From: Escherichia coli O127:H6 str. E2348/69
GTDB lineage: Bacteria; Pseudomonadota; Gammaproteobacteria; Enterobacterales; Enterobacteriaceae
Strand: one strand, 5' to 3'
Assembly (NCBI RefSeq): GCF_000026545.1
Contig: NC_011601.1
DNA: 64,000 nucleotides
This document shows positions 3,001-6,000 of this stretch, one piece after another. The stretch's first letter is position 1, and every line of letters begins with the position of its first letter. Made by a program: the position numbers.

Positions 3001-6000
3001 ACGACGAGATTGTGCAGCATCGCAGAGTCGCCCTGTTGGAGTTGATCCAAAAGCATATTCGCCAGCGCGATCTGATGGGGCTTATTGACCAACTGGTAGT
3101 ATTACTGGTTACAGAGTGTGCTAATGACAGCCAGATAACTGCGCTGTTAAATTACATTTTACTGACTGGTGATGAAGCGCGTTTTAATGAGTTTATCAGT
3201 GAAATTACCCGTCGACTGCCACAACAAAGGGAGCGAATAATGACGATTGCAGAGCGAATTCATAATGATGGATATATAAAAGGGGAACAGCGCATTCTTC
3301 GATTGTTTTTGCAGAATGGGGTAGATCCTGAATGGATACAAAAGATTACCGGACTTTCGGCAGAGCAAATACAGGCATTAGAGCAGCCCTTGCCTGAGCG
3401 TGAGCACGATTCATGGCTCGAGAGCTAATATGGAACTATCGCTATGCGCCTCCAGCATATCCAGCACCTGATCCCACTGGGTAATTTCCACCGGACGCGT
3501 CATCGACGGTACTGGCGGCTGGGCTTTACGTTGCGCGACAAAATAACCCGAACGCGGCTACGGAGTGATGAGGTTCATCGTCTCCAGCGTCTGATACGCC
3601 TGCTGCACGGTACTGATGCTGACGCCGTGCTCCTGACTTAAGCAGCGTACCGACGGCAATTTCTCCCCGTGACGATACAGCCCTTGCTCAATCCGCTCGG
3701 CAAGCAGAGTTGCCAGACGTTGATAACGCGTCATGCTGTATTCCTTATTTGGACCATACAGAGAGAAAAAACGGTACAGATGAGGCTAAAAAACCGGATG
3801 CAGATGCTGTTTTAATCTGTCTGTATGTTAAATAAAACTAATATTTGCATCTGTATTGTGAACTGCCAGAAGACGGATGATTAAGCCTCTGAAAGATGAG
3901 GAGGCAGCAGATGGAATTTCACTAAAACAAAGCCAAAGCGCCGTTTATCGGTTTCGTACAACTCTGGCAAGCGGTGAGGAGCTGGTGGCGGCAAATGCAG
4001 ACCCGACGGGTGTTACAGCAGATGAGTGATGAGCGGTTGAGGGATATCGGGTTACGCAGGGAGGATGTGGAGTGAGAGGGCAATTCCCCTTCCCGTATGG
4101 GGAAGGGGAGAGAAACTTAGCGTGGCGTTTTGCTACTAATCACCCCAATAAACTCCTGCACCTGCTTTTGTTTACGCGCCGACAGCTTGCACACCTGGCG
4201 CAGTGACTGCATCAGTTCGCTCTCTTCGGCGGCGGGTGGTTGGGCGGTGAGGACAATACAGCCTTCCATCACTTTGACATCTACCGCCGTGCCGGTGGCA
4301 AAACCGGCGGTTTCCAGCCACTGACCTTTCAGGGTGATGGCGGGAATACGGCTGTAATCCGGGTAGCGGCTCGCATAACTCACGGTTAATTGACGGTTAT
4401 TTGCCGGGGAGACTTCTGCTTCGAACGGTTGTGCAATAGAATGCGTGTCAGTCATGATTACTATTCTCGTGAAATAGGGATTGTGATGAGCGGTGCGGGT
4501 GTGTTGGCGCACATTCGCACCGCGCTAAATACCTGGATATATCATCAGTAAATACAGGGAAAGTCCAGCTAAAAATAGAAAATAATAAAAGCGTTACTGG
4601 AAAGATCTGGAAGAGAAATTAACGTTAATTCAGAATGGCCGGATAACAAAGTGTATCCGGCCTTCATAATTAATTTAAAGCACTCATATGATGTTCTTTA
4701 AAATTCTCTGCCTGTGCCAGCACACCTATATAAACATCATCATTTGCTACTGGCGGGAATTTATGCTTGTGTAGAAGCAGAATAAGTTCAACTTTCAGTT
4801 TCGCTTTAATATCATCGCGTTTACTCCAGTCAGGATACTTCGATGTGTTGTCAACCACGCTTTTCATCTCTTTTGCCAGTAATTTTTGTAATAACTGGAA
4901 CTTCGTTGCCGGAAGTTTGAACTTGTTAATTCCAGTGGCTAACGCGCTGGAATTTAACAGCAAAATGGTACGCTTTTATCACAGCAAAGATGAGAGGGAG
5001 ATGATGGCGTTTTTGGTAGCGGCTATCAGGCGTGACTAATATCTTAGATATACATTCATAACGCCCGGTACAGCGTTACCGGGCGTTATGGAGATAATTT
5101 ATCATTTTTACATATATTGTGGGCTTTGCTCATAGGTTTTTAGTAGATGCTCATTTAACGCACCTTCACCGTGCAAGGTTACCAAGAGATTGCAACGTGC
5201 TCGGGTAAAACCTACATAGAGTCTCTTTATATCCTCACTCAAATCATCGCTATTATCCCGTGTTCTCGCTGCATCAATAATGACAACTGAGTGAAACTCA
5301 AGTCCTTTGCTGCTGGGTAATGGCATAACAGAAATACGCTCTTGTTCTGGCGTCCAGGACTTTTTATCTGCAGAGCTTACAATAAGATTAAAGGGGATGT
5401 TTTTCGATTCAAGTACAGAACTTAGAGAGTTAGAAAGGGTGTGAGTTGATGGACTTAGTATAGCAATTTCAGACCATGGAATCCCTTGTTCATTTTGCTC
5501 TGTAATCCATTCGACTGCTCTTGCTATTTCTTCGTCCTGTGTGTCGAAATGTTCAAGGTTGGGATAATCGCCATTCATTCCTCCCGCAGCAGGTTTATGA
5601 TAGGTTAAAGAACTATCGATATGGCTATTAAGATAATTAAATGCAATACAACTGGCAAAGTGTAGGATTTGCTGTGTGTTTCTATAATTTATATTAAGAA
5701 TGGTTGTGCGTCCTGTCGCTTTAATATCTACGCTGGACAGTGTAAAGTCTAATGCTTTCTTTTTTTGGTAAATTGACTGAGCATCATCATAAAGGAATAG
5801 CAAATTCTCGTCCTGAGAGTCAGTCATTTTTGCCAGGATTTTTAACCATTCGGGCTTAAAATCATGTCCTTCATCAATTAATACAGCGCTGTATTGTTCT
5901 GGTTTTATTTTTCCTGTCTTGAAACCATCAGTCAACGCTAGCTCCATATTTTCAAAAATATTATCCCCTTCTGGAATAGTGATCTTGTTTTCTTTAATTT

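Follow-up and report, generated by a model that had tools for sequence, protein, structure and literature searches.

We analysed an open reading frame (ORF) of 97 codons at 4670-4963, on the minus strand, of a stretch of 64,000 nucleotides from the chromosome of Escherichia coli O127:H6 strain E2348/69 (hereafter the window). A preliminary description of this DNA had picked out a motif carried by the ORF as resembling the C-terminal tail of type I restriction R subunits (HsdR), and had proposed that the ancestral restriction system at this site differed from EcoKI. We conclude that the ORF is almost certainly a functionless relic of a type ID hsdR gene, and that the hsd genes were replaced, in the variable immigration control region (ICR), by a segment that carries the remnant of a Fic family gene (fic') and a gene for a NERD+UvrD helicase. 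The hsdR remnant lies in the ICR, the yjiN-yjiA interval, between symE and yjiA, and keeps ~87 of the 1087 hsdR codons in two pieces. Positions 4513-5107 are 100% identical to the E2348/69 record NZ_CP059840.2, and no mismatch occurs over a 14.1-kb overlap.

Database searches with the 97-amino acid product gave significant similarity to HsdR C termini, and neither an HsdS nor an unrelated protein was recovered. The sole Pfam match is PF11867 (T1RH-like_C, formerly DUF3387, 'Type I restriction enzyme HindI endonuclease subunit-like, C-terminal'), with a score of 64.7 bits, the cut-off being 26.8 (E 1.2e-17), and the ORF contains no HsdS domain (Methylase_S/target-recognition). Residues 28-90 of the ORF align with profile positions 267-328 of 329, so that the domain is far from complete, with only 62 of the 329 positions left compared with positions 5-328 in an intact relative. 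The PADLOC profile REase_I (PDLC03040) is matched over its last 65 positions (E 4.4e-25). With blastp, ORF residues 29-97 align with residues 1019-1087 of the intact 1087-residue HsdR of E. coli at 95.5-98.6% identity (E ~1e-44), and the HsdR of strain EC958 is 97.1% identical to the fragment over 69 residues. The five intact HsdR proteins examined are themselves 98.8-100% identical to one another (99.5% between EC958 and 21AH007), and the 1087-residue protein is composed of HSDR_N, SWI2_SNF2, T1R_D3-like and a full T1RH-like_C domain, the last at residues 748-1080 (Pfam). The earlier statement that no helicase or nuclease portion of HsdR and no hsdM or hsdS are present could be extended to the whole 64 kb, where tblastn with type IA, IB and ID HsdR and HsdM, type ID HsdS, the Mrr-like enzyme and BrnT/BrnA as queries found no further hsd parts, only two short HsdR C-terminal pieces. 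[quoted passage not shown] RefSeq (PGAP) already lists an incomplete pseudogene at 4670-4879, labelled 'type I restriction enzyme endonuclease domain-containing protein; missing N-terminus', an annotation that the preliminary description overlooked, as it did the three-part make-up of the ORF and the abutting fic remnant.

Alignment to the intact haplotype of strain 21AH007 (locus L002) resolves the ORF into a three-part chimera of antisense fic', hsdR piece A and hsdR piece B. With blastn, window positions 3400-4880 correspond to L002 12893-14368 (97.6% identity), positions 4866-4932 correspond to L002 14651-14717 (94%, E 6.6e-24), and the match resumes from 7288 onward with L002 22302 onward, at the stop codon of yjiA, which sets the break-points relative to the intact haplotype at 4880/4866, 4932 and 7288. 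Piece B (4670-4880, minus strand, with the stop codon at 4670-4672) encodes ORF residues 29-97, equivalent to HsdR residues 1019-1087. Piece A (4881-4932, minus strand) encodes ORF residues ~12-28, equivalent to HsdR residues ~903-920, and is also detected by blastp, where ORF residues 12-33 match HsdR 903-924. The non-HsdR start of the ORF (4933-4963, minus strand) provides residues 1-10 and is the antisense of the fic remnant, and its TTG 'start' is the first possible start codon after a stop. The reading of the whole ORF as an HsdR fragment thus holds for 4670-4932, in the form of two non-contiguous pieces, and fails for the first 10 codons (4934-4963).

The overlap of the two blastn matches at a short imperfect repeat implies that pieces A and B are joined by a 297-bp in-frame internal deletion at the imperfect 11-nt repeat CTTTT(G/T)CCAGT (~4870-4880), the two copies of which read ...CTCTTTTGCCAGT... 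and ...CGCTTTTTCCAGT... in intact hsdR. This repeat was read by eye from the sequence; the automated repeat search missed it because its exact cores are just 5 nt. At the other junction hsdR homology stops at 4932 and fic homology begins at 4929, giving an overlap of 4 nt, ATTC. The rearrangements would have arisen by illegitimate recombination or slippage, and the long open frame would be an accident, the deletion having fallen in frame by chance and the antisense of fic' being by chance free of stops.

The intact loci also account for the position of the remnant. In 21AH007, ST131-5506 and EC958 the order on the minus strand is yjiA, brnA/brnT, the Mrr-like restriction endonuclease, hsdM (539 amino acids), hsdS, hsdR (1087 amino acids) and symE, and it is the tail of hsdR, not hsdS, that adjoins symE at the site occupied by the remnant in E2348/69. 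In EC958 the ICR lies at 5.04-5.06 Mb. All that the window keeps is hsdR's 3' end, placed and oriented as this hsdM-hsdS-hsdR operon order predicts. The alternative order hsdR-hsdM-hsdS is found in K-12 MG1655 and E04 (EcoKI family) and in O157:H7 (EcoAI family), with hsdS adjoining symE, as had been stated for K-12. Relative to the intact haplotype ~7.6 kb are absent, covering the 5' 83% of hsdR, hsdS, hsdM, the Mrr-like enzyme and brnTA, and the 2.36-kb segment that replaces them (4933-7287) consists of fic', a terminator-like hairpin with a 16-bp stem (5055-5092) and the helicase gene with its upstream region.

The fic' remnant (4929-5039, plus strand) is the 3' end of a Fic family gene, with ~36 codons plus the stop, and constitutes a second gene relic that is fused to the hsdR remnant at the 4-nt microhomology. 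Its DNA is 89% identical to the 3' end (last ~100 bp) of the Fic gene that adjoins yjiA in strain E04; the translation in the window reads ...ALEFNSKMVRFYHSKDEREMMAFLV..., and the E04 Fic protein reads ...ALEFNSKMVRFYHSKDATEMMAFLV.... Beyond the hairpin, which separates fic' from the 3' end of the helicase gene, lies the sole cargo of the E2348/69-type ICR haplotype, a gene of 616 codons (5108-6958, minus strand) whose product has the Pfam domains NERD, UvrD-helicase and UvrD_C and a predicted function in defence. In PADLOC it hits the candidate defence model C3a187 'NERD+UvrD' (E 2.8e-140), with weaker matches to GajB, Nhi and DRT-associated helicases, and it is named '3'-5' exonuclease' by RefSeq. 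Plasmids from E. coli, Vibrio and Klebsiella, among others, encode relatives at 39-57% identity.

Window positions 4670-4880 were matched in 1084 of 5426 complete E. coli genomes (about a fifth) at 90-100% identity. In ~80% of an even sample of 60 of these records, which takes in ST131 strains and Nissle 1917, the match is annotated as a full-length 'type I restriction endonuclease subunit R'. The helicase segment (4881-7300) was found in 100 of the 5426 genomes at a coverage of at least 80%, always on the chromosome and adjoining yjiA. A hundred genomes carry the whole of 4513-5107 as one unbroken alignment over both junctions, and this indicates a single origin for the haplotype with remnant and helicase gene. 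Its left-hand contents differ, with GmrSD in XH990, UTME-7 and ECCNB12-2, an intact yjiR in B1 and a yjiR pseudogene in E2348/69, and the haplotype has thus recombined among lineages.

We then considered whether the chimeric frame is likely to be expressed or constrained. There is no sigma-70-like promoter on the minus strand within 4400-5200, and no Shine-Dalgarno sequence could be read ahead of the TTG. A +1 insertion at ~4884 in XH990 destroys the upstream part of the frame, and about a fifth of the C-terminal domain is left in the remnant. Over the last 70 codons, with the junction codon excluded, five haplotype copies have 5 synonymous and 11 non-synonymous unique changes, compared with 8 synonymous and 2 non-synonymous in a set of four intact and two otherwise-truncated (hsdM'-hsdR' fusion) copies (Fisher p = 0.04; crude dN/dS of ~0.56 versus 0.06). 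Together the promoter, Shine-Dalgarno, frameshift, substitution and domain evidence fits a presumably neutral relic under relaxed constraint. Such a remnant would do nothing, and its persistence would reflect its place beside the conserved symE/symR module and the lack of selection for its removal. Restriction in E2348/69 is provided for elsewhere in the genome, by an EcoR124I-like type IC system (PMC2518929) and by the RMS-DarTG island (PMC12255303).

Several points weigh against a functionless type ID relic. Four of the five copies examined keep the 97-codon frame open; the haplotype copies are ~5% diverged, hence old, which some would take as conservation; the selection test comprises only 70 codons and 11 sequences; and the link to the type ID prototype StySBLI, used below, is indirect, running through the published identity of the EC958 protein and not through our own alignment. 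A conservation reading of the open frame is countered by the substitutions, since these are mostly non-synonymous. The open frame is also what would favour an expressed small protein that retains the HsdR region in contact with the methyltransferase core and acts as a decoy or dominant-negative product alleviating type ID restriction, or as a partner of the NERD helicase, and the occurrence of remnant and helicase gene together in 100 of 100 genomes points the same way. We regard this proposal as very improbable, because the frame has neither a promoter-like site nor a ribosome-binding site, is shifted in XH990, shows an excess of non-synonymous changes and encodes just a fifth of the domain, while the window offers no type ID hsdM or hsdS to act on and a single haplotype origin accounts for the co-occurrence. 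It is no less doubtful in its more specific form, in which a small helical protein from the chimeric frame, or a 65-codon part of it from an internal ATG, would bind the type ID M2S core, alleviate restriction or modulate incoming systems, and be retained with the NERD cassette for that reason.

The assignment of the relic to type ID follows from its C-terminal domain, its location and the published relationships of the EC958 enzyme. The HsdR proteins of types IA and IB, scanned here in E04 (IA) and O157 (IB), end in PF08463 (EcoEI_R_C), whereas PF11867 is the domain in the fragment and in its intact relatives, and blastp of the fragment gave E 0.57 against IA HsdR and no match against IB HsdR. 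Among solved structures the HsdR of EcoR124I (type IC) is matched by the intact relative in the nuclease/motor core only (best stretch residues 144-510, E 1e-23), and for the C-terminal 340 residues of intact HsdR the PDB gave no hit up to E 10, EcoR124I HsdR included. The EC958 system is EcoMII (Forde et al.), an hsdM-hsdS-hsdR operon with an adjacent Mrr gene that recognises AACN4CTTT, and R.EcoMII shares 92% identity with the R.StySBLI protein of Salmonella Blegdam (PMC4659465), StySBLI being the type ID prototype (PMC3874165, PMC12707154). The type ID gene order used here rests on the intact loci together with PMC4659465. The S. xylosus methylome paper, the EcoKI frameshift paper and the UTI89/CFT073 study assign this system to no family. 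Genetic and immunological criteria for a type I family are subunit complementation and antibody cross-reactivity among its members (PMC12707154, PMC3874165); HsdR identity within a family is typically >90%, a level that the fragment exceeds in its match to EC958, with the step to StySBLI taken from PMC4659465. A 2025 review found that 8,424 enterobacterial ICRs hold only types IA, IB and ID, together with brnAT, symE-symR and rpn (PMC12707154), contents that match the haplotype seen at the intact loci, and the place of the remnant between symE and yjiA is that of type ID systems, in the serB-linked ICR and allelic with IA and IB. Because of the 97.1% identity to EC958 HsdR, the published 92% identity between R.EcoMII and R.StySBLI and the restriction of ICR families to IA, IB and ID, the remnant most probably descends from a type ID hsdR. 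A type IE (KpnBI) origin is unlikely because the EC958 protein is published as 92% identical to StySBLI.

The locus comparison, the C-terminal domains and the identity of the EC958 enzyme as R.EcoMII also support the earlier view that the ancestral system differed from EcoKI in both family and gene order. One could instead suppose that the fragment comes from an hsdR of type IA (EcoKI-like), IB (EcoAI-like) or IC (EcoR124I-like), or from hsdS, and that the locus is a deleted K-12-type arrangement, given that the K-12 gene at the same position, on the same strand and adjoining symE is hsdS and that E2348/69 has an EcoR124I-like system elsewhere (PMC2518929). However, IA and IB enzymes end in a different domain and have no significant blastp match to the fragment, the likeness of EcoR124I HsdR is limited to the nuclease/motor core of the intact relative, and the fragment has no HsdS domain by Pfam, so that the C-terminal domain, blastp, structure and Pfam comparisons rule these origins out and leave them a negligible probability. 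That a spurious ORF gave the similarity by chance or through low complexity, conceivable for a purely mechanical ORF list in an AT-rich region, is just as implausible and was rejected on E-values of 1e-17 to 1e-44 and because other strains have, at this point of the chromosome, an hsdR whose 3' end is 97.6% identical in DNA.

The left neighbour of the remnant is symE (4117-4455, minus strand; RefSeq annotation, NCBIfam NF010128 equivalog, E 5.6e-67), which forms an intact module with the antitoxin small RNA symR (4450-4526, plus strand; Rfam RF01809, with 88.9 bits where the gathering score is 61). Just 3' of the hsdR stop codon a hairpin can be read from the sequence at 4637-4662 (GGCCGGATA, an 8-nt loop, TATCCGGCC); it lies inside the 97.6%-identical stretch and is evidently kept from the type ID haplotype. 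The ~73 bp at 4513-4585, 5' of the symE coding region and in the symR/symE promoter region, are the sole part held in common with IA and IB haplotypes, and the ~85 bp at 4586-4669, which include the hairpin, are specific to the type ID haplotype. On the right, yjiA (7289-8245, minus strand) is the anchor of the variable region, where homology to the intact type ID haplotype restarts at 7288. The left part of the ICR in E2348/69 (2360-3734) is eroded too: mdtM, which other strains have between yjiN and the rpn gene, is absent, and yjiR is only a 315-bp pseudogene, labelled by RefSeq 'GntR family, internal stop, missing C-terminus'.

Other strains carry further copies or relatives of this hsdR. 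Independent decay of the same type ID system is seen in STEFF_1 (L004 6158-6993) and EC12 (L005 6155-6990), in which a deletion has produced an hsdM'-hsdR' fusion made up of 58 N-terminal hsdM codons and the last 223 of hsdR. The Mrr-like enzyme is retained in both strains; brnT and brnA are both present in STEFF_1, and EC12 has brnA and a short pseudogene only. In strain B2.3 (L006 5998-6147) a 150-bp remainder of this hsdR 3' end lies between copies of IS600 and IS2, near evgS and pap genes and far from an ICR context. Strain 2452 (L016 3498-6752) has a full-length type ID-like hsdR (1084 amino acids, 93% DNA identity at the 3' end) outside the ICR, adjoining L-lactate utilisation genes (lutABC-like), and the type ID-like hsdR family is thus found at another chromosomal site as well.

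We thus have a pseudogene scar of an ordinary kind, already flagged by RefSeq, in the E. coli defence locus whose variability is best known, and all that is added to the known annotation is that it is a chimera of three parts, that a fic' scar adjoins it and how frequent it is among genomes. It has little import beyond annotation, as one more route of ICR turnover in E. coli, by which one NERD+UvrD gene has in ~2% of genomes taken the place of a type ID system that roughly a sixth of complete genomes possess. The datable scars, namely the two hsdR pieces, the fic piece and the microhomology junctions, mark a haplotype of single origin and could serve as markers of ICR recombination. The kept 3' end of hsdR lengthens the homology with type ID haplotypes and may ease later cassette exchange.

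Compared with the type ID systems StySBLI, EcoR9I, KpnAI and EcoMII of ST131 strain EC958, the remnant is alike in its ICR position, its symE neighbour and PF11867, and is 97-98.6% identical to the final 69 residues of HsdR of the EC958/21AH007 type, but it is without the nuclease and motor domains, hsdM and hsdS, and is a relic rather than a system. The EcoKI (IA) and EcoAI (IB) loci of K-12, O157:H7 and CFT073 occupy the same ICR region as alleles, with the same direction of transcription and symE/symR as left neighbour, but differ in the order hsdR-hsdM-hsdS, in the adjacency of hsdS to symE, in an HsdR that ends in PF08463 and in having no detectable similarity to the fragment. Sibley and Raleigh (2004) reportedly described the ICR defence island as varying in a cassette-like manner and containing gene relics. 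The E2348/69-type haplotype shares with that island, as described in PMC12707154, the conserved anchors yjiA and yjiN around alternative defence cargoes, and the hsdM'-hsdR' fusion of STEFF_1 and EC12 is an example of other decayed type ID forms. It differs in having a single NERD+UvrD gene together with the hsdR' and fic' relics, and the text, as distinct from the figures, of PMC12707154 makes no mention of NERD among ICR contents.
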